Assembly: GCA_031316235.1 (NCBI GenBank)
Contig: JALDRA010000001.1
Coordinates: 1,410,001 to 1,442,000 of the forward strand
Reading direction: 5' to 3'
DNA: 32,000 bases
From: Candidatus Scalindua sp.
Lineage (GTDB): Bacteria > Planctomycetota > Brocadiia > Brocadiales > Scalinduaceae
Every line of letters begins with the position of its first letter. The first letter of the stretch is position 1. Positions 2,131-30,884 of this stretch are shown here, one piece after another. The notes beneath the pieces were generated by a model that ran no database searches, was not told the DNA's origin, and worked only from the letters and a program-made list of their open reading frames with translations. A program made the translations under genes and the position numbers.

Positions 2131-3381
2131 CTAAGCGCTTTTCCGCAATTTCTGTGGAGTAACATGGGCTTTACCCTCTACAACTTCCGGGGTTATTGTA
2201 TAGACAGCTCCCTTTTCATTCGAAGGCAAATCATACATGATGTCCAGCATGAAACCTTCAAAAAGGGAACGGAGCGCCCTTGCCCCTGTTTTACGTTCAA
2301 TAGCCATCTTACTGATTACTCTCAAGGTCTCTTCCGGGAATTCCAGAGTAGCATCTTCCATCTCAAAGAGTTTTTGGTACTGTTTAACGATAGCGTTTTT
2401 CGGTTCGAGCATGATTGAAACCAGGTCATCTTCGCTGAGAGGATTTAAGGTCGCTGTTATATGGAGCCTGCCGATAAATTCATGGATCAGGCCAAATTCT
2501 GTCAGATCTCTCATATTAACTTCTGACAAAATATTGTCTGCCGATGTATTATCTCCAAGAACTTTTTTTGCATTAAAACCAATCGCCTTCTTGCTGATCC
2601 TTTTTTTAATTATCTCTTCAATGCCGCTGAACGTTCCGCCACAAATAAATAGAATATCCTTGGTTTCCATCTGAATGTACTGCTGTTCCGGATGTTTTCT
2701 GCCCCCTTGGGGCGGAACATTAATTGTAGAACTCTCAAACATCTTGAGGAGTGCCTGCTGCACCCCTTCCCCGGAAACATCTCGCGTTATTGAAGCACTT
2801 GATCCCTTTCTGGCTATCTTATCAATTTCATCTATATAAACAATCCCCTGCTGTGCATGCGAAACATTAAAATCTGCATTTCTGAGCAACTTTAAAAGTA
2901 CATTTTCTACATCTTCTCCAACATAACCAGCCTCGGTAAAACTCGTAGCATCGGTAATGGCAAAAGGCACATCGATCAGTTTGGCAATAACTCTTGCCAG
3001 TAACGTCTTACCGGTACCCGTAGGCCCAATGAGCAGTACATTACTTTTTTCAAGCTCTACATCATCGGTCACATTTGACTCCAGTCTTTTATAATGGTTG
3101 TGAACCGCCACAGCCAGACACTTTTTCGCTTTTTCTTGACCGATAATATACTCATCCAGATGATTTTTTATCGTTGCGGGCGCTATTATCTTCTTATGAA
3201 AGGACTTGGGTGTCTTTGTCTTATCTTTCTGTATGAGTGTGTAACACGCATCAACACATTCATTACAAATATATACGTTGCGGTCGCCCTGGATCAGCCT
3301 TTTCACGACATTGTAATTCCTCCCGCAAAAAGAGCACGACATGTTCTTATCCTTCTTGTCCCGGCCTTTCTTATCCATCAC
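2131..3381 (-). CDS. clpX: ATP-dependent Clp protease ATP-binding subunit ClpX
   Basis: N-terminal zinc-binding domain CSFCG...CNEC, Walker A GPTGTGKT and Walker B VYIDEIDK. Full-length 416 aa. No clpP is adjacent. Confidence 0.95.
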
Positions 3382-5531: not shown

Positions 5532-5887
5532 TGGTGGAGGCGGCGGGAATCGAACCCGCGTCCCAAAGCATTTCGGTAAAGGCATCTACACACATAGTCT
5601 CTCTATTTTGTTTTCGTCAGATTAAACGCCGGGAGACAGGCTCTCAATCCAACTATCTCAAACAAAAAGTTCACTCAGCCTTCGTTGAGCAAAAAGGCCG
5701 AGCTAACCTGCTGTTTGTCACCCTTTCCAGCCTCGCAGGTTAGACCGGAAGGATGTGACTGGTTTTACGCAGCCAATGCTAAATCATTATCAGCATTTAG
5801 TTTTTGCCAGGTGTTTTATGAGGCCTCCTGGACAACCTCAGAGTGCAGCCTTCACTTCTAACTACTTGGTCGAAACCTTTCGCCCCC
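5532..5887 (-). ncRNA. ssrA: tmRNA (SsrA)
   Basis: The minus strand starts GGGGGCGAAAGGTTTCGAC and ends GGTTCGATTCCCGCCGCCTCCACCA, i.e. tRNA-Ala-like acceptor/T-arm with encoded CCA. An internal tag frame reads GCT GAT AAT GAT TTA GCA TTG GCT GCG TAA (ADNDLALAA*). It lies directly downstream of smpB. Confidence 0.93.
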
Positions 5888-6463: not shown

Positions 6464-6547
6464 GCCGAAGTGGCGGAATTGGCAGACGCGTTAGGTTCAG
6501 GACCTAATGTCCGCAAGGATGTCGGGGTTCGAATCCCCGCTTCGGCA
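6464..6547 (+). tRNA. tRNA-Leu (anticodon CAG), type II with long variable arm
   Basis: Acceptor GCCGAAG/CTTCGGC, anticodon stem TTAGG/CCTAA with loop TTCAGGA, variable arm TGTCCGCAAGGATGT and T-arm CGGGG-TTCGAAT-CCCCG. CCA is not encoded. Confidence 0.9.
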
Positions 6548-6728
6548 CTCTAACTCACTGATATCTCAAAACTTGCAAACCAAAATTTTGTCCCGGGGCC
6601 GGGTATCGTTTCCGGCCGGAGGTATCGGCATTCCCCTCTTCCATTTTGATAATTTTGTCTTTTATTGCCGGGGCTTGAGCAGGACAACCCATAAAAACCG
6701 AAACACCTGCATTGAATAAATTATTACT

Positions 6729-21320: not shown

Positions 21321-22274
21321 ATGAAGACTACTTTTATTCCTCTTGCTGTTTTTGCAGCCCTGCTTTTCCTGACAACAGCTGCGTTCGCTTCTGATGCTCC
21401 ATGGACAGACAATTTTGAAACAGCAAAAATTGCAGCCAGCAGGGAGGGAAAAGATTTACTTCTGCATTTCACTGGATCAGATTGGTGCCCCTGGTGTATC
21501 AAGCTTGAGAGAGAGGTTTTCAGCCAGGAGACATTTAAGAAAAACGCCCCCAGGCATTTTATTCTCGTAGATATTGACTTTCCGAAGTCCAAGGAGCAGT
21601 CTGAAAAGATAAAAAAGCAGAACAGGGAGTTGGAAAAGGGGTACCAGGTAGAAGGTTTCCCGACTATTGTACTCACCGATTCCAAAGGACGCCCCTATGC
21701 AAGGACGGGGTATCAGGAGGGAGGTCCCGATATTTTCCTCAACCATCTTCAGGAACTCCGCACACTTAAGATAAAGCGTGATGCACTATTTGAAAAGGCA
21801 GAAAATGCCAAGGGCATTGAAAAGGCGAAGCTTTTCGATCAGGCACTGAATTTGCTGAAGAGTAATGGCGTTAACACTCTTCATGAATACAGGGACATTG
21901 TCGACAAGATCGTGGAACACGACAAAAACAATAAAGCCGGGTTGAGGAGCAACTATGAGGCATTGAAAGTCCGGTACGAAAGCGATGAACGAATATCGGG
22001 CATCATGGAAGATCTGGATCGTAACCTCTCAAGTGATTACGACAAAGCCATCGGGGAGTTAACACTATTAATTGAGTTTTCCAAACCTGTGCCCGAGACT
22101 GTCCAAACCATCTACCTTAAAATGGCCGAGTTATACCAGGAGGGAAAAAAAGACAATGCTGCCTGGTTTAAGAGTCTTGAAAACGCCGCCAAAGTTGCTC
22201 CGAATACCGATATCGGCAAACGGATCATTGAGTTGCTTGAAGAGATCGAGAACGGGGAGCTAGGTAGTGATTGA
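21321..22274 (+). CDS. Secreted thioredoxin-fold protein with C-terminal helical domain
   Basis: Signal peptide MKTTFIPLAVFAALLFLTTAAFA, thioredoxin-like core with redox motif WCPWC (LLLHFTGSDWCPWCIKLE), and a ~170-aa helical extension. Confidence 0.75.
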   Translation: MKTTFIPLAVFAALLFLTTAAFASDAPWTDNFETAKIAASREGKDLLLHFTGSDWCPWCIKLEREVFSQETFKKNAPRHFILVDIDFPKSKEQSEKIKKQNRELEKGYQVEGFPTIVLTDSKGRPYARTGYQEGGPDIFLNHLQELRTLKIKRDALFEKAENAKGIEKAKLFDQALNLLKSNGVNTLHEYRDIVDKIVEHDKNNKAGLRSNYEALKVRYESDERISGIMEDLDRNLSSDYDKAIGELTLLIEFSKPVPETVQTIYLKMAELYQEGKKDNAAWFKSLENAAKVAPNTDIGKRIIELLEEIENGELGSD

Positions 22275-22325
22275 ACCAAAACCAGCCACCGTCTGCGTTA
22301 CTGTAATATATCCGTAATCATCAAG

Positions 22326-22456
22326 TTATAATTGTTTTCGGATAAAATCCGGGAAAAAAGGAGCGGGTAAAATCCTCGGCGTTTTTTGTACGGGGATACC
22401 GGCAATCAGGCTTTGGTTTTTAGAAAAATCTGAAACCAAATCGGTTTTGGCATATC
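22326..22456 (+). repeat. Structured intergenic repeat, copy A (131 nt)
   Basis: Aligns over its whole length with the reverse complement of 28224-28355 (87 of the first 99 columns identical by hand count), and at both ends with 29335-29438. Lies between convergent genes, has stops in all frames, and the flanks are unrelated. Confidence 0.85.
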
Positions 22457-22506
22457 AAAAGTATCGTGGATGAAAGTTAGGTAACGCCCGGTCTACAATG
22501 AGAAAA

Positions 22507-23205
22507 TTAGAGCAGAAGGGTACTGAAAAAACCAATCAAGGCTCCAAAAACACCCCCCCAGACAACCAGCCACCCAAGGTGCTGACGGATCATCTCTTCT
22601 ATTATCCCCTTTACATGATCCGGGGTAAGTTCATCCAACCTGGTATCTACCATGTTACCGATCTTTGACTTGAAGGTTTCAAAATCTGTCTCTCTCTGCA
22701 GAACCGATGATATGTCAATATTGTGAATAACTTCGGATACCTGTCTCTCAGACTCCTCTTTAAATGGTCCCCGCAGCGGTTCGATGACCTTTGCACCACC
22801 GATCATGTTCAACATTCCGCCGAAGGGTGATGTCGTAATTACGGATACATACCCATCGAACATCTTGTCAAAATCTATCTTTTCCATTATGAGCTCCGGC
22901 TCTATCTGGTGGGGAAAGGCCTCTTCTGAGACCTTTGCAAAATTCTCTTCGGTAAAAAAATTCTCCATAATCAGAGAACGAATACCCGCCTTAAATTGCT
23001 CAAACCTGAGGGCTATAATTCCTGAACCATAAAGCAAGGGAATTTTTTCAAACAGCATATGTACGGCCAGCCAATTGGTTAAGGCGCCAGACAATGCAAA
23101 CAAACCGGCGCAGCTGAGCGCATGTTTCCCGGGAAATTGGGGGCTTGCAAAAGCCGCCACACAGATTGTGGCGGCAATCAGATTCGTCAATACACTTTTA
23201 TTCAT
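22507..23205 (-). CDS. DUF445-family membrane protein
   Basis: 232 aa with N-terminal TM helices and a C-terminal HLGWLVVWGGVFGALIGF segment characteristic of DUF445 proteins. Confidence 0.55.
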   Translation of the reverse strand: MNKSVLTNLIAATICVAAFASPQFPGKHALSCAGLFALSGALTNWLAVHMLFEKIPLLYGSGIIALRFEQFKAGIRSLIMENFFTEENFAKVSEEAFPHQIEPELIMEKIDFDKMFDGYVSVITTSPFGGMLNMIGGAKVIEPLRGPFKEESERQVSEVIHNIDISSVLQRETDFETFKSKIGNMVDTRLDELTPDHVKGIIEEMIRQHLGWLVVWGGVFGALIGFFSTLLL

Positions 23206-23447
23206 ATTTCTTAAATTATTTATTTAGACAGGATATATACGGTTTTTATCCTGCTTACCCGGTAAATCCTGCCTGAAAAAGGGCTGAAATGGAAATTCAC
23301 ATACAATCACTATCTCTCCAGAATATATGTGCGACACATTGTATAGTAAACAGCGGTGTTTGAAAACAGAAAACTGTCAACACTCAAATATTTCATGATT
23401 ACGTTGAGGAACTACTCTCTTCTCAATTTACCGATGCACAGCAGATC

Positions 23448-23615
23448 ATGGAAAGCGGATCACAGGAAGATATTGTTGGATCAATAAAAATTTACGAGGA
23501 ACAGGAATATTATAAGAAATCAAAGAGATCAATGATTCTCAAGATGATAAAGATTCATAATGATCCATACTATATACCTCTTCGTATCTCTTATCAAAAT
23601 GGGGGTCCTCTCTAG
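23448..23615 (+). CDS. Possible 55-aa ORF or gene remnant
   Basis: ATG..TAG frame MESGSQEDIVGSIKIYEEQEYYKKSKRSMILKMIKIHNDPYYIPLRISYQNGGPL. The frame is open a further 22 codons upstream without a start. It has protein-like composition and is followed by a hairpin, but there is no clear SD and no recognisable family. Confidence 0.2.
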   Translation: MESGSQEDIVGSIKIYEEQEYYKKSKRSMILKMIKIHNDPYYIPLRISYQNGGPL

Positions 23616-23873
23616 TTGGTTAAGGAAGATGGATGCTACTTCCTTACTAACCAGACATAATCGATATCACAATGTCGATCAACAAATGTAAGTAACCGTT
23701 AAGCTGGATATATTTTGGATTTCTAAAATTTCTCTATCGCTCTTTGTGTCTTTGAGGTAAACTGTTGCTTCCTGTTTTCTGCTCAGCAATCCCTAGCCCA
23801 GACCTCAGTACGAATCGCACCAGGACAGGCCGAAACCCGAATTCCGGAATCTGAAATCCCACAATGATATCTA

Positions 23874-23900
23874 TTGACACAATCACCCGATTTTTATACT
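23874..23900 (+). promoter_or_regulatory. Candidate promoter TTGACA-N15-TATACT for the DJ-1/PfpI gene
   Basis: Consensus -35 TTGACA (23874-79) and -10-like TATACT (23895-900), about 47 nt before the ATG. The spacer is only 15 nt, which is short. Confidence 0.35.
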
Positions 23901-23946
23901 GTAGAGTCCATTATTTCGAGAACAAACTGCTTTTAAAAGGATTTCA

Positions 23947-24528
23947 ATGGGAACAAAAAAAATATTGATGATTGTTGGTGATTATGTGGAAGATTACGAG
24001 GTAATGGTACCCTTTCAGGCACTGCAGATGGCAGGACATTCGGTACACGCCGTCTGCCCGGATAAAAAAACGGGTGAATGCGTACGAACTGCCATACATG
24101 ACTTTGAGGGTGACCAGACGTACAGCGAGAAACCGGGACACAATTTCACCCTGAATGCCGCCTTTAACGAAGTGAAGGCATCTGATTATGATGGTTTGGT
24201 AATCCCGGGTGGCCGTTCACCGGAGTATCTTCGCCTCAACGAACGGGTATTGGAGATAGTAAGGCACTTTTCTGAAGTGAATAAGCCTATTGCTGCAATC
24301 TGTCATGGCGTACAACTGTTGGCTGCCGCTGGTGCACTTCAAGGGAAGAGCTGCACAGCCTACCCGGCAGTTGCACCGGAGGTAACACGCGCTGGTGGAA
24401 AATGGGTCGAGGTCCCCATAGACAAGGCACACGTAGACGGTAATCTGGTTACCGCCCCGGCCTGGCCAGCCCACCCGGAATGGCTTGCACAATTCCTTAA
24501 ACTGTTGGGAACGAAGATCACGCCATAA
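23947..24528 (+). CDS. DJ-1/PfpI family protein (PfpI/YhbO-like intracellular protease/deglycase)
   Basis: 193 aa with nucleophile elbow [19 protein letters not shown] and an N-terminal [14 protein letters not shown] pattern. Confidence 0.88.
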
Positions 24529-25368
24529 GTGAATCTTTGTTATGAGGGGGAGGGGCAATTACTGAAAAAATACTGAGCGTGAAACATGCATGGCTCAATG
24601 AAACAATCAAGAGAAACAGTTTGCAGCAAACACTCATTCAAATCTTCAGGCCCGATGATGAAATTCACAAAGAAGCCCTTATGCACAATATACAACTGTT
24701 TTGCAGTGACAGGCTATGGACCGGAGAGGCGGAGTCGCTGTTTATTTCAATTCCAGATTAACATAAATGACTTACCTGACATTATCACTAACCGGAATTT
24801 GTGATTGCTGTGGAGCTCTCTTTTCTTCAGGATTTGCTGTTGCCGGAACTGTCGTCATTGGTAAATGAGTACCATGTCCCGCTTGTGGCAAAACTGGATC
24901 AATCCCCGATGAAACGTATTAAATTGCAGATAATGGCATAGTGATTATCACGAGCACTATACTGTCTGCTGCGGCTTTACCAGAAGATAAAAGCCCAACG
25001 GATGAAACAGTACAAAGACTGCCCGACAAATCAATAATGCAAACCCTTTAAAGAAAAACCGGGACAAGAAAATGGGCAGACCTTCAAGCACCAATCAACT
25101 TCAACCGCACAGAAAAAACCGTGGTCAAAATTGAATGATTGAGAAAGAGTTAAAAATGTTTTTTTAGTTATATGGAAATTCATAAAAATCTGGTATCATG
25201 TTAGGCTAATTGTAAAAAAGACCGACACAGTCTATTTTACTGTTACCTGAGAAAAGAGCTGAAATTAATCCATAAGCGAGTCTAAAAAAGGTAGCAGAAA
25301 ACTGAAACAGGCAGAAGGCCTGAGTCCGGAGTTAATTTCATTTAAATCTAAATATGAAGGAGTTGAGA

Positions 25369-25701
25369 ATGGCAGAAGCAAAAGGATTGAGTAAACCGGT
25401 AAAACTGAAAAGCGAGATGGCAAAGTTTCTGGGAGCAACAGAGCTTCCCAGGACAGAGATCACAAAAAAAATATGGGATTATATTAAAGCAAACAAGCTT
25501 CAGACAAAGACCGAAAATGGCAAACCTGAAAATGCAGGCAAGTTCATTGTGGCTGATGCTAAATTGCTCCCGATCTTCAAAAAAACAAAATCAAAAAGCA
25601 AGTCAGGAAAGGTCACCGACCTTACAAAGCTCAAAGAAGGCCAGACGGTCAACATGATGCAGATGGCCGCTATTGTCGGTGCAAACATAGAACAGGAGTA
25701 A
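25369..25701 (+). CDS. SWIB/MDM2 domain protein
   Basis: SWIB pattern KLKSEMAKFLGATELPRTEITKKIWDYIKANKLQ...FIVADAKLLPIF followed by a Lys/Ser-rich tail. ATG at 25369 sits 6 nt after AAGGAG; the ORF-track ATG at 25354 has no SD. Confidence 0.85.
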   Translation: MAEAKGLSKPVKLKSEMAKFLGATELPRTEITKKIWDYIKANKLQTKTENGKPENAGKFIVADAKLLPIFKKTKSKSKSGKVTDLTKLKEGQTVNMMQMAAIVGANIEQE

Positions 25702-25824
25702 AGAGTTGGGTATGAGATGGGTATGAACTGCATCGATAACAAGTCTGTCAAGCCGTCTGTGTCCGGGTTCAAGCATCCAGATAGCAATCAACACCTAGCA
25801 TCAACGAAGAACCAGGGGGAAAAT

Positions 25825-25852
25825 GCTCCATCAGTGCCGTTTCTGATGGAGC
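25825..25852. terminator. Perfect 10-bp hairpin GCTCCATCAG-N8-CTGATGGAGC
   Basis: Lies 124 nt after the SWIB stop. On the minus strand it is followed by ATTTTCC. Possible bidirectional terminator between SWIB (+) and folD (-). Confidence 0.45.
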
Positions 25853-26159
25853 AGAACTATTAATGCTTCCGCTGAACGTGTAAAATTGGGAGTCACCCGG
25901 TGGGGGCCATACTGTCCCTGAGTAAAATAGCATACGGCGATCTGAGAGGACTTAAGTACGTTTTTGGTGTGGTAATCGTATAAAAAGTTTTATCCAGTTA
26001 CCGGGTGAGAAGGAGTACCGGTCGCCGAAATCGGCTTTAAAGAAATTATATCTGAAGACCAGACAGAAATTACGGAATACTCAGCCTTATTACCGGACTT
26101 CATTGAACAGCCCGCTTTCGACTTCGGGAGAAGACCGTTTTGATACTGTTTGCTTTTAC

Positions 26160-27077
26160 TTAACACCTCTCAATCCCCAATTTAACTTTAAGAGACTTAA
26201 GAGTATTTTTCATAAGCATCGTAATTGTCATGGGTCCAACACCCCCGGGAACTGGTGTGATACTTCCCGCAATTTCCTTAGCCGCTTCAAAATCAACATC
26301 TCCTTTGAGAATTGCAACCATCTTATTGGGGTCGTTTTTGCTCGGTTTTTCACCAACCCTGTTAACACCCACGTCAATTACGCATGCACCCGGTTTTATC
26401 CACTCCGGCTTAACCAGGCCGGGTACTCCTGCAGCGACGATTAGTATGTCTGCACGTTTACAATGGACCTCCATGTTTTTTGTACCTGTATGAACGATTG
26501 TCACCGTTGAATTAGCACCTTTTCCTTTTTGAAGCATCATGTTGGCAATCGGCTTACCAACAATATTTGAACGGCCTACCACGACAACTTCTGCACCGCT
26601 CGTCTCTACACCAGCACGTACAATCATTTCCTGGATACCAGCCGGCGTGCACGGTGGAAATCTAAGCGCATCGCCCCCAATCATAAGTCTCCCCACATTA
26701 ACAGGATGGAAACCATCAACATCTTTATCCGGATCTATGGCATTGAGCACTTTCTTTTCATCTATGTGTCCTGGAAGGGGAAGTTGTACAAGGATGCCAT
26801 TAATAGAGTCGTCATTATTGTATTTATCTATAAGGTTAAGAAGGGCCTCTTCAGAGATATCAACTGATTGAGTATCCTGTACCTCTTTAAAACCTACCCT
26901 GTGAGCGGTTTGTATTTTCAACGTAACGTAGGACATGGAAGCGGGATTTTCGCCAACGAGAATGGTAACAAGCCCGGGCACGACCCCATGCTTTTCCTTT
27001 ATTTCCGCTACTTCAGCTGTAATCTCTTCCAGAATCTGCTCTCGAATCTCTGTACCCTTTATGAGTTTTGCTGTCAT
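26160..27077 (-). CDS. folD: Bifunctional methylenetetrahydrofolate dehydrogenase/methenyl-THF cyclohydrolase
   Basis: Motifs VGENPASMSYV, VQLPLP, DVDGFHPVNVG, VVVGRSNIVGKP and PVPGGVGPMT. Start set at ATG 27077 (MTAKLIKG...), preceded by AAAGGAG/GAGGAG. The 21-codon extension in the ORF track has no support. Confidence 0.93.
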   Translation of the reverse strand: MTAKLIKGTEIREQILEEITAEVAEIKEKHGVVPGLVTILVGENPASMSYVTLKIQTAHRVGFKEVQDTQSVDISEEALLNLIDKYNNDDSINGILVQLPLPGHIDEKKVLNAIDPDKDVDGFHPVNVGRLMIGGDALRFPPCTPAGIQEMIVRAGVETSGAEVVVVGRSNIVGKPIANMMLQKGKGANSTVTIVHTGTKNMEVHCKRADILIVAAGVPGLVKPEWIKPGACVIDVGVNRVGEKPSKNDPNKMVAILKGDVDFEAAKEIAGSITPVPGGVGPMTITMLMKNTLKSLKVKLGIERC

Positions 27078-27116
27078 GCTCCTCAATTCTCCTTTCAAAA
27101 TAAGCAAATGAGATGG

Positions 27117-27148
27117 TATCGTTTTCGCCGAAGGCACCAAAAACGATA
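27117..27148 (-). terminator. Strong hairpin between the TusA-like gene and folD (terminator or leader structure)
   Basis: The minus strand reads TATCGTTTT-TGGTGCCTTCGGCG-AAAACGATA: a 9-bp outer stem plus an inner GCC/GGC stem. It is followed by CCATCTCATTTGCTTATTTT rather than a clean U-tract. Confidence 0.45.
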
Positions 27149-27200
27149 AAATGCCCGAATATTACTTTTTCTCTCGTTGTTTGATAAGGATGATAAAGCT

Positions 27201-27440
27201 TTACTTACCCGGTGACTGTTTCCGTACGAAGGTGTGATACTCATCATCTCTTTCGTCTATCTTCAGTAACTCATTTCCCGTCTTTTCACACCAGGCCTCT
27301 ATGTCAGTCTTTATCCCATCATCAGTCGATATGATTTCCAGTATCTGCCCTATCTCCATCTCCTTAATCTTCTGGGATGCCTTGAAAATTGGCATCGGGC
27401 AGAGGAGACCGTAGCAATCTAAGGTAAAATCAGGTTTCAT
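27201..27440 (-). CDS. TusA/SirA-like sulfur-carrier protein
   Basis: 79 aa with LDCYGLLCPMP (CPxP active-site motif) and ILEIISTDDGIKTDIEAWC, typical of the TusA family. Confidence 0.85.
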   Translation of the reverse strand: MKPDFTLDCYGLLCPMPIFKASQKIKEMEIGQILEIISTDDGIKTDIEAWCEKTGNELLKIDERDDEYHTFVRKQSPGK

Positions 27441-27620
27441 AGCTCACATTCAATTGTTCCGGTTAATAGATTAAAAGGTGGATTATAAATATTTTTGCAG
27501 ATATTGTAAAGTAAGTTGTGTAAATTTTAATGAAGTGCTCATATCCCGGTATCCTTATCTTCCATCATGACTTAGACAACCACATCGAGGTACTGTCCAA
27601 ATGGTTACCTGAAGGAGTAT

Positions 27621-27977
27621 TTACTGAGGCAACGGTTTCAACACAAAATTGTCTTCTTTTTCAACTAAAACAAATTTCTGAGCGCACAATGGACACCTCT
27701 CCTCGTTCCCCACCGAGGGACTTTTCCCAAAGTCAACTGCCCAGCCACACACTAAACAATAGAGACCTACCGTATGATCTTCTGACTCAATAGCCTGGAT
27801 AACTTTTTTAAATGCTTCTTTGTGCCCCTTTGCAGCCCGGGCAAGATGGTTAAAGATCTGCCTGACCTTTGAATCAACAGATTCCATAACGCACTGTTTA
27901 TAAAGCTGTTCCCGTTCCTCTTCTCTTTCCATATTACTCTGAAGCAATTCTATAATGGTTTTAAATCCTTCCCGCAT
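27621..27977 (-). CDS. Hypothetical protein: helical N-terminal part plus C-terminal CxxC...CxxC zinc ribbon
   Basis: 118 aa with SD GAGGAAG upstream. C-terminus is CLVCGWAVDFG...CPLCAQKF. The N-terminal helices vaguely resemble a ferritin/rubrerythrin-like helix pair but lack ExxH. Confidence 0.6.
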   Translation of the reverse strand: MREGFKTIIELLQSNMEREEEREQLYKQCVMESVDSKVRQIFNHLARAAKGHKEAFKKVIQAIESEDHTVGLYCLVCGWAVDFGKSPSVGNEERCPLCAQKFVLVEKEDNFVLKPLPQ

Positions 27978-28001
27978 ATTATCTTCCTCACTCTAAAGAT
28001 A

Positions 28002-28199
28002 TCAACTCCCTAATCTCCGAATCTCTCCCTCAATTTCTGTCCTGAGGATCACTTCATTATGCAAAATACCTTCAAGAAGAGAATTAACAGCAGGATCATT
28101 TAAAGTCTTTATCTGGTCTGAGTAACGCTTGATTGTCTGCTCAATTTCCCCGATGGCCATTGTTAAATTTTTTCTTTCTCTCTCCCTGTTTCTGCTCAT
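28002..28199 (-). CDS. Hypothetical small helical protein (52-65 aa)
   Basis: ORF ends 24 nt upstream of the zinc-ribbon gene, so they are probably co-transcribed. Alternative start at 28160 (MAIGEIEQ...). No recognisable family. Confidence 0.45.
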   Translation of the reverse strand: MSRNRERERKNLTMAIGEIEQTIKRYSDQIKTLNDPAVNSLLEGILHNEVILRTEIEGEIRRLGS

Positions 28200-28223
28200 G
28201 GCAATTGTGTACCCTTCTTGAAT

Positions 28224-28355
28224 GTATACTGAAACCGATTTGATTTTTATACTTTCCTAAAAACCAAGGCCTGATTGCCGGTATCCCCGGACAAAAAACA
28301 CCGAGGACTTTCCCCCTTCCGTTTTTTTCCGGATTTTATCCGAAATCCAGTATAA
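28224..28355 (-). repeat. Structured intergenic repeat, copy B (132 nt, inverted relative to A and C)
   Basis: Its reverse complement aligns with 22326-22456 end to end. Bounded by a perfect 7-bp inverted repeat TATACTG (28225-31) / CAGTATA (28348-54). Confidence 0.85.
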
Positions 28356-28391
28356 GATGAGGACGCCCCAAAATATGATAGAAAGACTGCT

Positions 28392-28431
28392 CAACAAAAA
28401 TCGCAGGGCTGAGAAGGTTCTCAGCCCTGCG
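28392..28431 (-). terminator. Rho-independent terminator of the cytochrome c pair
   Basis: CGCAGGGCTGAGAA/TTCTCAGCCCTGCG near-perfect palindrome (28402-28431), followed on the minus strand by TTTTTGTTG. It starts 41 nt after the cytochrome c stop. Confidence 0.85.
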
Positions 28432-28471
28432 TATGGTAAACCAAAGACGAAAAAATAACCAGAATTTTCTT

Positions 28472-28822
28472 CTATTTGCGCTTTCTCTTTGGAGCAAAAA
28501 ATCTTACATACTTCACCATAGCCTTAATCTCTTCCGCGCTCAAATTACCTTCCTGTTTCGGCATCTTGTTCTTTCCATGAGTTATGGATTTCTCCAACTC
28601 TTCGTCAGTAACAGAATCCTGCCAGGCAGCATCAGTAAAATCGGGAGCTCCAAGTTTCTGACCTCTCTTTGACCCCTTGCCATCAAGTCCATGGCATTTC
28701 CTGCACTCATTCTTGTAGATCTTTTTATAATCAATTTCTCCGCCAGAAGCCTTCGAAAGCTGAAATGAAGTCAAGGACACTATCAGCATTATAATACCGC
28801 CATAAACAACGCCGCTTCTCAT
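28472..28822 (-). CDS. Monoheme class I c-type cytochrome (secreted)
   Basis: 116 aa with SD GGAGGTG, a signal peptide, a single CRKCH heme motif, a distal Met candidate (KNKMP) and a basic tail. Confidence 0.85.
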   Translation of the reverse strand: MRSGVVYGGIIMLIVSLTSFQLSKASGGEIDYKKIYKNECRKCHGLDGKGSKRGQKLGAPDFTDAAWQDSVTDEELEKSITHGKNKMPKQEGNLSAEEIKAMVKYVRFFAPKRKRK

Positions 28823-28912
28823 ATTTCAACACCTCCAAGGTAAAATTTTGTGTATCGAAATTACAGATAACCAGTCTCCATAAAAAGTCTCGATTTGTCA
28901 GCCCTTCCGCAT

Positions 28913-29257
28913 TCATTCCTTTCCAAATGCCCTTATTACCGGTATCAGGGCCACCATCTCTTCATGCGTAAGCTTATCCTTAAAGGGAAACATCGTACCT
29001 TCTGATCCGTTGGTAATTTGCTTGATGATGGCCTCATCAGTTATAGAGCTCTGGAACTCCTTGTTGGTAAAATCCCGTGCCCCGAGCCCCTCTCCCAGGT
29101 CTGTTTTCCCCTTGCCGTCTTCTCCATGACAGATAACACAGTGTTTCTTAAACAATTCCTGCGCATCGATCTCATCAGCAAACACTTTCGATGTTACAAA
29201 ATAACTTACCGCCAGTTGAATCATTATTACCAGACATCCTCGTAAAAATATCTTCAT
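28913..29257 (-). CDS. Monoheme class I c-type cytochrome (secreted), paralog of 28472..28822
   Basis: Heme motif CVICH and distal Met candidate (GTMFP). It aligns with the neighbour around EID...C..CHG.DGKG...LGA.DFT...Q.S.TDE. Start placed at ATG 29257, 5 nt after AAGGAGG, giving signal peptide MKIFLRGCLVIMIQLAVSYFVTSKVFA. Confidence 0.85.
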   Translation of the reverse strand: MKIFLRGCLVIMIQLAVSYFVTSKVFADEIDAQELFKKHCVICHGEDGKGKTDLGEGLGARDFTNKEFQSSITDEAIIKQITNGSEGTMFPFKDKLTHEEMVALIPVIRAFGKE

Positions 29258-29334
29258 TTTTTCCTCCTTCATTTAAAATCTTCTTATATAAAATAACATA
29301 CTCCTGTGCTGTTTATTGACAGTTTTATACTCAT

Positions 29335-29438
29335 CTCATAATGGTTTTCGAATAAAATCCGAGATAAAATGGAGCGAGTATACCTTCACCAAGATTTAGT
29401 TTCCGGTAAAACCGAAAACCAAATCGGTTTTAGTATAA
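29335..29438 (+). repeat. Structured intergenic repeat, copy C (104 nt, shorter variant)
   Basis: The 5' ~46 nt and 3' ~28 nt align with copy A (about 80% and 75% by hand count). The central part is shorter and divergent but preserves the bulged helix. A TTGACA (29315-20) lies 15 nt upstream of its CATAAT 5' edge. Confidence 0.75.
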
Positions 29439-29474
29439 CTCAGCCCTCACAACAGGGTTTTCCGCATTCGGGCA

Positions 29475-30884
29475 CTAATTTGGCAGCCCTGGTTGCGTCA
29501 TTGATTCAAGGGAGAGAGCCTGTTCAATCTTCTCTTCAGACATCAACCCCCACTTTAAAACAATCTCTTTTATCGGCATACCCGTTAAGCTTGATTCTTT
29601 TGCGACCTCTGCCGCCTTTGAATACCCTATGTAAGGGTTCAAAGCAGTTACAACAGCAAAACTATTTATTGCATATTGATAACATCTCTCTTTATCCGCC
29701 GTGATTCCGACTGCACACTTGTTAATAAAAACTTTTAGTGCGTTTGCAATAATCGATATCGAGTCCAGCAATTTGTACTGCATCAGGGGCATCATTACGT
29801 TCAGTTCAAGTTGACCAGCCTGTGCCGCCATCGTAATCGCCAGGTCGTTGCCAATCACTGAAAAACAGACCATAGTCAGCATCTCAGCCATTACAGGGTT
29901 CACCTTTGCCGGCATGATCGAAGAGCCCGGCTGCACTGCCGGCAGATGTATCTCGCTTAAGCCGGTCCTGGGACCGGAACTCAACATTCGTAAATCGTTT
30001 GCAATTCTGATGAGCTCCACCACAAAGACCTTTAAAGAGCCTGAAACCTCAGCAATAGATGCATTGCTTTGCATAGCCTCAAAACGATTTGACGCACCTC
30101 TTACCGGGATTTTTGTCATTTTCTGAAGTTCACGAATAATCCTTACCGCATACTCGGGATGGGTATTGAGCCCTGTTCCGACTGCGGTTCCCCCGATCCC
30201 CAGTTCATACAACGAAGCACTTGAGTTTTCAATTCTCTCAGCAGACTTCGAAACAGCATCTGCATAGCCTGAAAACTCCTGACCAAGTCTGACAGGCGAA
30301 GCGTCTTGTAGATGGGTCCTTCCAGACTTAATAATTGTACTGAATTCCTCGGCCTTCCTGTTAAGAACATCTACTAACTCGTCCATTACAGGAATGAGCT
30401 CCTTCAGTACCAGCAATGCTGCAATTCTCATCGCAGTGGGAAACACGTCATTTGTTGATTGCCCGCAGTTAACATGGTCATTCGGATGAACAATAGAGTA
30501 GTCTCCCTTCTTTCCACCCAGACCTTCAATTGCAATATTGGCTATCACCTCATTTACATTCATGTTAAATGAAGTTCCAGCACCTGCCTGATAAACATCC
30601 ACCACAAATTGATCCTGAAATTCCCCCTTCAAGATCCTGTCGGCAGCCTGGATGATCATTTCACTTCTTGCCTTATTCAAACACCCAAGCTCGTTATTTA
30701 CCTTTGCCGCGGCCTTTTTTATATAGACCATAGACTCCGTAAATTTGGGGTGAGGCCTTATACCGCTTATTGGAAAGTTTTCCAACGCCCTCACTGTCTG
30801 AGCGCCATAATAAGAGTCTTTTGGGACCCTTATTTCTCCTAAAGTATCGTGCTCTATACGAAACTGGTTGTCTGTTGTTTCCAT
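29475..30884 (-). CDS. aspA: Aspartate ammonia-lyase (class II fumarase/aspartase family)
   Basis: 469 aa with signature GSSIMPAKVNPVM (the Ala variant typical of aspartases), N-terminal IEHDTLGEIRVP..YYGAQT.RA.ENF and NDHVNCGQSTND. A class II fumarase is not fully excluded. Confidence 0.85.
   Translation of the reverse strand: METTDNQFRIEHDTLGEIRVPKDSYYGAQTVRALENFPISGIRPHPKFTESMVYIKKAAAKVNNELGCLNKARSEMIIQAADRILKGEFQDQFVVDVYQAGAGTSFNMNVNEVIANIAIEGLGGKKGDYSIVHPNDHVNCGQSTNDVFPTAMRIAALLVLKELIPVMDELVDVLNRKAEEFSTIIKSGRTHLQDASPVRLGQEFSGYADAVSKSAERIENSSASLYELGIGGTAVGTGLNTHPEYAVRIIRELQKMTKIPVRGASNRFEAMQSNASIAEVSGSLKVFVVELIRIANDLRMLSSGPRTGLSEIHLPAVQPGSSIMPAKVNPVMAEMLTMVCFSVIGNDLAITMAAQAGQLELNVMMPLMQYKLLDSISIIANALKVFINKCAVGITADKERCYQYAINSFAVVTALNPYIGYSKAAEVAKESSLTGMPIKEIVLKWGLMSEEKIEQALSLESMTQPGLPN

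Follow-up and report, generated by a model that had tools for sequence, protein, structure and literature searches.

A family of TA-inserting miniature inverted-repeat elements in Candidatus Scalindua, probably mobilised in trans by an IS630-type transposase

Two described groups of small bacterial repeats come closest to the elements reported here. The Correia (NEMIS) elements of Neisseria are non-coding, multi-copy and mostly intergenic sequences of ~107-155 nucleotides (nt), with terminal inverted repeats of ~24-26 nt and a TA at both termini that derives from target duplication; they come in a short and a long version, set apart by a single internal segment, and no cognate transposase has been identified in their host (PMC2229807). 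The RUP element of Streptococcus pneumoniae (107 nt, ~100 copies) inserts at TA, and its mobilisation by a transposase of the IS630-Spn1 type has been deduced from the similarity of the terminal inverted repeats (PMC2229807). Modulation of the expression of neighbouring genes has been reported for Correia elements, and sites for integration host factor (IHF), promoters and processing by RNase III are among the features shown for them. In the anammox bacteria, IS630-family insertion sequences have been reported from the genomes of Kuenenia, Brocadia and Jettenia (PMC7814187). The current report concerns three related intergenic repeats, designated A, B and C, in a 32,000-nt stretch of the genome of Candidatus Scalindua sp. 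(assembly GCA_031316235.1, contig JALDRA010000001.1, positions 1,410,001 to 1,442,000), referred to below as the window. We consider it highly likely, at a probability of roughly 0.85, that they are copies of a non-autonomous MITE (miniature inverted-repeat transposable element) of the Scalinduaceae, which is mobilised in trans and inserts at TA, with an enzyme of the IS630/Tc1-mariner type indicated. The identity of the repeats as MITEs is well established; their mobilisation in trans by an IS630-family transposase is probable, and constitutes the best-supported but unproven step of this account.

The initial annotation of the window had recognised A, B and C as homologous, and a profile built from the three agrees with it: nhmmer returns A, B (on the minus strand) and C with E-values of 1.3e-49, 5.3e-49 and 3.3e-31 and detects no further copy in the 32-kb window, the next match (E 0.018) lying within C itself. 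A and the reverse complement of B are identical at 111 of 130 positions (85%), A and C at 78% and B and C at 74%, and each of the blocks TTTCGGATAAAATCCGG and AAAYCAAATCGGTTT occurs exactly three times in the window. The places originally assigned to the copies stand after small corrections, which put A at 22327-22454 (plus strand), B at 28225-28365 (minus strand) and C at 29326-29437 (plus strand); the start at 29335 first proposed for C was too late and had cut off the 5' terminal repeat TATACTCAT. Copy C represents the short form of the element (112 nt, 95% identity to the family consensus), with TA dinucleotides at 29326-29327 and 29436-29437, a 5' terminal inverted repeat TATACTCATCTCATAATGGTTTTCGA at 29326-29351 and a 3' terminal inverted repeat CCGAAAACCAAATCGGTTTTAGTATA (reverse complement TATACTAAAACCGATTTGGTTTTCGG) at 29412-29437, both given for the plus strand. 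Copy B is a 141-nt form with 78% identity to the consensus. It contains the additional hairpin module in its interior, GTCCTCGG...CCGGGGA, and at its very 5' end decay has turned TATA into CGTC. Copy A falls into the 140-nt class, has 82% identity to the consensus and has lost ~11 nt of its 5' terminal repeat. A and B share a private variant, GGATACCGGCAATCAGGC, that is in none of the other loci compared. Copy C is young and close to the consensus, and the decayed copies A and B are old members of a 140-nt subfamily.

All three copies sit between Pfam-supported genes, so that the intergenic location first ascribed to them holds relative to these genes. Copy A lies between the convergent genes for a thioredoxin-like protein (21321-22274, plus strand) and a DUF445 protein (22507-23205, minus strand). 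Copy B ends, on its 3' side, 25 nt before the start codon (ATG, 28199) of a 65-codon open reading frame (ORF) that heads a small group of minus-strand genes. Copy C has on one side the fumarase C gene (29475-30884, minus strand), of which the 3' end faces it, and on the other the start of a cytochrome c gene (28913-29272, minus strand); a 111-aa ORF at 29369-29704 that overlaps copy C and is antisense to the fumarase gene is presumably spurious. Copies B and C, in opposite orientations and 960 nt apart, bracket two adjacent small cytochrome c genes (Cytochrome_CBB3; 28472-28822 and 28913-29272, minus strand).

Beyond the window, a scan with the 23-nt pattern TTTCGNATAAAATCCGNNANAAA, for which one genome was taken per species, gave at least 120 stretches (8-kb blocks), and in these 120 blocks nhmmer, after the merging of split matches, identified at least 159 elements, 121 of them full length. 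Among the matches listed, 106 of the 120 blocks derive from three metagenome-assembled genomes (MAGs) of Scalinduaceae, namely Ca. Scalindua sp. SCAELEC01 (at least 59 elements), Ca. Scalindua sp. RBC_AMX3 (at least 59) and the long-contig Scalinduaceae assembly CBDCUS01 (at least 32); among the same matches, full copies occur in Ca. Anammoxibacter and in one further MAG, and a partial copy in another Planctomycetota MAG. About a dozen pattern matches in other phyla consist of the bare pattern, with no wider similarity to the family. When the copy by which each block was selected is set aside, 44 copies are left in 839 kb, or ~1 per 19 kb, from which we would extrapolate to a few hundred copies per genome. 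Of the 121 full copies, 104 are intergenic by a crude gene model in which 75% of the DNA counts as coding, and the four classes of orientation relative to the neighbouring genes contain 37, 23, 23 and 22 copies, without a clear bias. The full-text literature yielded no description of this family or of MITEs in Scalindua or other anammox bacteria, nor any occurrence of the sequence strings of the family. With that literature and Rfam as the measure, the family has not been described before; the kind of element to which it belongs is well known.

The unit of the family is a non-coding, AT-rich sequence of ~110 nt (112 nt when the duplicated TA is included), for which the consensus of the short form is TATACTCATCTCATAATGGTTTTCGGATAAAATCCGAGATAAAATTGAGCGAGTATAACTGCAACCAAGATTTGGTTTCCAGTAAAACCGAAAACCAAATCGGTTTTAGTATA. 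It ends in imperfect terminal inverted repeats of 26 nt, TATACTCATCTCATAATGGTTTTCGG on the 5' side and, on the 3' side, the sequence already given for copy C; the outer 6 and inner 10 positions of TATACTCATCTCATAATGGTTTTCGG and TATACTAAAACCGATTTGGTTTTCGG agree and are conserved in more than 95% of 108 copies, with the outer part TACT and the inner part TGGTTTTCGG of the repeat invariant. The abrupt loss of similarity at the ends that had been noticed in the three copies is a property of the family as a whole: the 108 copies are conserved at 95-99% throughout the stretch that opens with the first T of TATACT and closes with the last A of AGTATA, and the flanks are near random, apart from a preference for T or A immediately beyond the 3' end of the element. 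The regular expression used to find the ends partly anchors the outermost positions and accounts for some of their conservation. The initial annotation had described the copies as not resembling the ends of insertion sequences, and in this it was wrong, as they possess both the 26-nt terminal inverted repeats and a duplicated TA target.

Three size classes can be distinguished. The first, of 112-113 nt, comprises 38 copies; the second, of 139-141 nt, has an extra 28-nt hairpin module after GAGCGAGTA; and the third, of 162-227 nt, harbours GC-rich palindromes at two fixed points, in every case with TAAAA directly 3' of them. The nested palindromic units have the sequences CCTGCCTGTGCGATGCACGCAGACAGG and GCCCGCCCGGCCTGTCAGCCGTTCG... 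(examples are L033 6078-6247, L041 995-1145, L018 4190-4417 and L099 4428-4652), and look like a separate small insertion element with a target preference of its own.

The evidence for movement comes from sites that are filled in one genome and empty in another. The window is syntenic with contig SHMT01000028 of SCAELEC01, and because the nucleotide identity over the syntenic DNA is only 77-89%, the two represent different Scalindua species. In the first pair of sites, the window has the empty target GTCCAT-TA-TTTCGAG, with the TA at 23912-23913, upstream of a DJ-1/PfpI gene, and SCAELEC01 has the filled counterpart GTCCAT-TA-TACTCATC...TTTTAGTA-TA-TTTCGAG, in which a 112-nt copy (L042 797-908) has a TA on both sides. 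In the second pair, RBC_AMX3 (L081) is empty, CCTTG-TA-TCTGGGC, and SCAELEC01 (L102) is filled at 2743-2855, again with TA on both sides. Copy A is in turn missing from the orthologous site of SCAELEC01 (L042), where an intact copy of an unrelated repeat, family X (see below), is found. From the filled and empty pairs it follows that insertion duplicates TA and that the element proper is TACT...AGTA. The insertions occurred after these Scalindua species diverged; the few syntenic stretches available contain no orthologous insertion common to species, and of the insertions in them one is private to the window, one to SCAELEC01 and one to L102. Further candidate pairs (L107/L118, L089/L063 and L040/L012) were set aside as too diverged or because the synteny stops at a gene.

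In the window, a promoter-like TTGACA...TATACT box (23875-23945) precedes the DJ-1/PfpI gene (23947-24528). In SCAELEC01 the MITE copy is located between the corresponding box and the DJ-1/PfpI start codon, and would there belong to the 5' leader of the gene.

The features by which bacterial MITEs are recognised (PMC2229807) are thus all found in this family, which is small and non-coding, has terminal inverted repeats, shows a duplicated target in comparisons of filled and empty sites and exists in many dispersed and mostly intergenic copies; the duplicated target is TA, as for RUP. Between the two possibilities that had been raised for the repeats, an ERIC/Correia/MITE-type element and a dispersed family of small RNAs, these observations support the former, and the latter is left without support by the results on RNA structure and expression signals described below. 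Our account of the movement is correspondingly simple. A transposase supplied in trans would bind both ends of the element and excise or copy it, and the element would go in at a TA dinucleotide; the TA would thereby be doubled on both sides, which would produce the TATACT...AGTATA ends seen in almost every copy. The longer forms derive from the optional 28-nt hairpin module and from the nesting of GC-rich palindromes at fixed points.

Some indication of the enzyme can be drawn from elements with related ends. A second Scalindua MITE family, of ~190 nt, has the near-perfect ends TATACCCATCGCAAAWTGGTTTTCGG, which are of the same terminal-repeat class as those of the main family, and was probably moved by the same enzyme; its loci are L052 5917-6098, L069 ~6545-6726, L073 5114-5295 and L014 ~3190-3373, and in L069 the second-family copy abuts a copy of the main family through the junction TATATATA. 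In L088 (583-1839, minus strand), a group II intron reverse transcriptase/maturase (RVT_1 6e-41, GIIM 1e-18) is situated between two ends of the second family, as if the intron had invaded a MITE copy. Since the two families share their ends, a common end motif, TATACY.A...C....TGGTTTTCGG, can be formulated. Metagenome contigs were scanned with this motif followed by G or C, so that the known MITE interiors were left out, and 25 stretches were obtained. Several of these represent either variants of the Scalindua family or further small elements, in which an inverted partner of the end occurs at a distance of 105-195 nt. Elements of ~105-195 nt with TATACT...TGGTTTTCGG ends and different interiors are present in L124/L136, L131, L135, L138 and L139, on contigs without a copy of the Scalindua family, and suggest that this class of ends and its IS630-type enzyme are widespread.

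Three of the metagenome loci (L130, L141 and L143), all from one sample, Ga0272440, have the identical end TATACTCAAACCGAAATGGTTTTCGGCAATTAAT in three different flanks, the end at the three insertion sites being TATACTCAAACCGAAATGGTTTTCGGCAAT. In L130 this end adjoins a frameshifted transposase gene on the opposite strand, the coding sequence of which reaches the tip of the element and in which HTH_33 is matched above the Pfam cut-off (4e-10) and DDE_3 below it (2e-4). The homologues of this transposase are 353-aa proteins with HTH_33 and DDE_3 domains, labelled "transposase" at their source, an architecture that we take to be that of the IS630 family. The L130 end shares 23 of 26 positions with the 3' end of the Scalindua MITE, the search pattern having dictated 17 of them, and 26 of 30 with a variant 5' end of the MITE, where 4 bases outside the pattern are among those that agree. 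It is because of the TA duplication, together with the presence of the same terminal sequence on an IS630-type transposase gene from a metagenome, that a DDE transposase of the IS630/Tc1-mariner type is indicated for the Scalindua elements.

Several results weigh against this account and should be considered together. A search of ~950 kb of Scalinduaceae DNA found no transposase with ends that match, and when 632 ORFs of at least 180 aa from the Scalinduaceae loci were compared with one another, none proved to be multi-copy. Inverted pairs of ends 0.8-3 kb apart, which were examined as possible carriers of a transposase, enclose housekeeping genes or the group II intron reverse transcriptase. 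The host of the L130-type element is not Scalindua: its DNA has 33-36% GC and nothing in common with Scalindua DNA. The element itself is frameshifted and was recovered with a single end. The homologues of its transposase on five contigs had to be rejected as direct partners, as the insertion sequence copies there (related copies are in L147, L152 and L153) end in TACCAATCCGCG... and not in TATACT...TGGTTTTCGG; because of these different ends, the link between the ends and the enzyme rests on one element family. Finally, the likeness of copies between species extends over their whole length and is not confined to the ends (identity 0.88-0.92 between species and 0.87-0.94 within species), which could also reflect selection on the interior for a function in the host or as RNA. 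The same likeness would also result if conserved master copies had recently given rise to bursts, or if copies had been exchanged between Scalindua species.

The last of these points bears on the possibility that the MITE has been partly exapted by its host, such that co-transcribed copies supply hairpins, promoters or protein-binding sites that modulate expression, and are conserved over their whole length for that reason. The copies are about as alike between species as within them, even though the syntenic DNA of the window and SCAELEC01 is only 77-89% identical; some are found in 5' leaders (copy B in the window and the SCAELEC01 copy before DJ-1/PfpI); and the 3' hairpin exists in two variants, GGTTTCCGG...CCGAAAACC and GGTTTTTAGA...TCTAAAACC, both of which keep the stem in an alignment inspected by eye. 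It is possible, judging from sequence context, that such copies have effects on the neighbouring genes, in particular B before its small operon and the SCAELEC01 copy in the 5' leader. Against exaptation, the few syntenic stretches available contain no insertion held in common by species; the copies have no preferred orientation and no promoter signal above chance; and the conservation between species is equally well explained by master-copy bursts or transfer between Scalindua species. We therefore regard exaptation as improbable. A wider proposal, which would make the element more than a selfish MITE, combines two ideas. The first is that the TATACT...TGGTTTTCGG end marks an undescribed, cross-phylum subgroup of IS630-type elements from which several MITE families have sprung, two of them in Scalinduaceae and the rest in unrelated organisms of sediments. 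The second is that the Scalindua copies have stayed nearly identical across species because the host uses their hairpins or the TATACT boxes at their junctions to control the genes next to them; respiratory and redox genes would be among these, for instance the cytochrome c genes that B and C flank. This combination is speculative, and we think it unlikely.

It is still harder to see the repeats as genes for dispersed small regulatory RNAs, or as cis-acting RNA elements of leaders or 3' untranslated regions, that are transcribed and act through conserved hairpins. Local hairpins are present, and the folding of A (z -2.7), B (z -2.9) and, on the minus strand only, C (z -4.8) is better than that of shuffled sequences; these scores are unremarkable because they are expected of any sequence with inverted repeats. 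The interior is conserved as well as the ends, TATAAT-like hexamers occur at the 5' end of the element, and copy B lies 25 nt before an ORF start. Against this, a match to a known RNA family, which would have told against the novelty of the repeats, was looked for in Rfam and was not found at the elements, either at the gathering score (whole window) or at E<=1 (22000-29700). In an RNAalifold alignment of 38 short copies the covariation term is -0.25 and compensatory change is seen in 2 of 25 pairs, with copies too alike for a strong test. Scans for sigma-70 promoters and terminators gave counts equal to those in shuffled sequences and no site placed consistently in the copies, apart from which one weak terminator-like site lies inside copy B. 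The lack of a clear orientation bias speaks against RNA genes too, and the insertions that, in the syntenic stretches compared, are present in one species and absent from the orthologous site of another, with duplication of TA, are the behaviour of a transposon. An RNA family is, on these grounds, very improbable. A local segmental duplication, or REP/BIME-type palindromes moved by a RAYT (IS200/IS605-like) tyrosine transposase, might be suggested by three palindromic, intergenic copies within 7 kb and can scarcely be credited. The duplication is refuted by flanks that bear no relation to one another and by the presence, in other genomes, of at least 159 copies at unrelated sites. By their length (112-141 nt), AT-rich composition, 26-nt terminal inverted repeats and TA duplication, the elements differ from REPs, which are short GC-rich hairpins without target duplication (PMC3184786).

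The MITE is not the only repeat in these genomes. Copy A is inserted in the left half (22264-22325, plus strand) of a palindromic repeat unrelated to the MITE, family X, which is ~125 nt long with the ends GGTTGAACCAAAACTRCCCA...GTTTTGGTTCAACC and gives 66 end matches in 37 Scalinduaceae blocks among the matches listed. The stop codon of the thioredoxin-like gene (22272-22274) falls within this repeat, which in the window is decayed, with copy A nested inside it. Family X is also present at L042 (reverse complement, 2511-2276), L081 (~1517-1690) and L102, and the MITE has inserted into it, at TA, at least twice.

The window is in other respects ordinary chromosome, with ~42% GC and genes for GroEL, Lon, ArgH, LysA, FolD, fumarase C, two cytochromes c, TusA and desulfoferrodoxin in addition to tmRNA and tRNA-Leu. 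The tmRNA gene (5532-5887, minus strand; 178.9 bits in Rfam) specifies the tag peptide ADNDLALAA, and the tRNA-Leu(CAG) gene (6464-6548, plus strand) is ~600 nt from it. A 115-aa ORF at 25354-25701 (plus strand) has a SWIB/MDM2 domain (1.5e-17), which is uncommon in bacteria.

There are practical consequences for work on anammox bacteria, which have not been brought into pure culture and are known chiefly through fragmented MAGs. A repeat that recurs at ~1 per 19 kb is likely, along with two or more other families of repeats, to cause breaks in Scalindua MAG assemblies, and such repeats could also give rise to mis-called small ORFs, like the one that overlaps copy C. Insertions vary between Scalindua species in the syntenic stretches compared and might therefore serve as strain or species markers, and the family could provide a record of recent transposition in a lineage without genetic tools. 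The common 26-nt end and its IS630-type partner make up a candidate pair of transposase and end that might be adapted for transposon mutagenesis. No evidence of a new mechanism was found; the element is in other respects an ordinary MITE.

In its architecture, the Scalindua family is a bacterial MITE of the Correia/RUP kind. With the Correia elements it shares the approximate size, the non-coding character, the multiple and mostly intergenic copies, the approximate length of the terminal inverted repeats, the TA at both termini, the existence of short and long forms and the want of an identified cognate transposase in the host. It cannot be filed as a Correia element, since its host phylum is a different one (Planctomycetota, Scalinduaceae) and no likeness of sequence was recognised beyond the TATA that comes from the TA duplication, so that the resemblance is architectural only; the extra internal segment, moreover, is 28 nt here and 50 nt in Correia. 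With RUP the family has in common the length, the multiplicity of copies and the TA target, and the logic by which the L130 element is taken to point to the transposase is the same as that applied to RUP. The two differ in that RUP shares its genome with the partner insertion sequence and has a terminal inverted repeat of ~9 bp, whereas the Scalindua repeat is 26 nt and the one matching IS630-type end found so far is on a metagenome contig of another organism. The duplicated TA target and the terminal inverted repeats are also those of the IS630 family within the Tc1/mariner superfamily, and the L130 element, with the same end, encodes HTH_33 and DDE_3; unlike the insertion sequences of that family, the Scalindua elements encode nothing.

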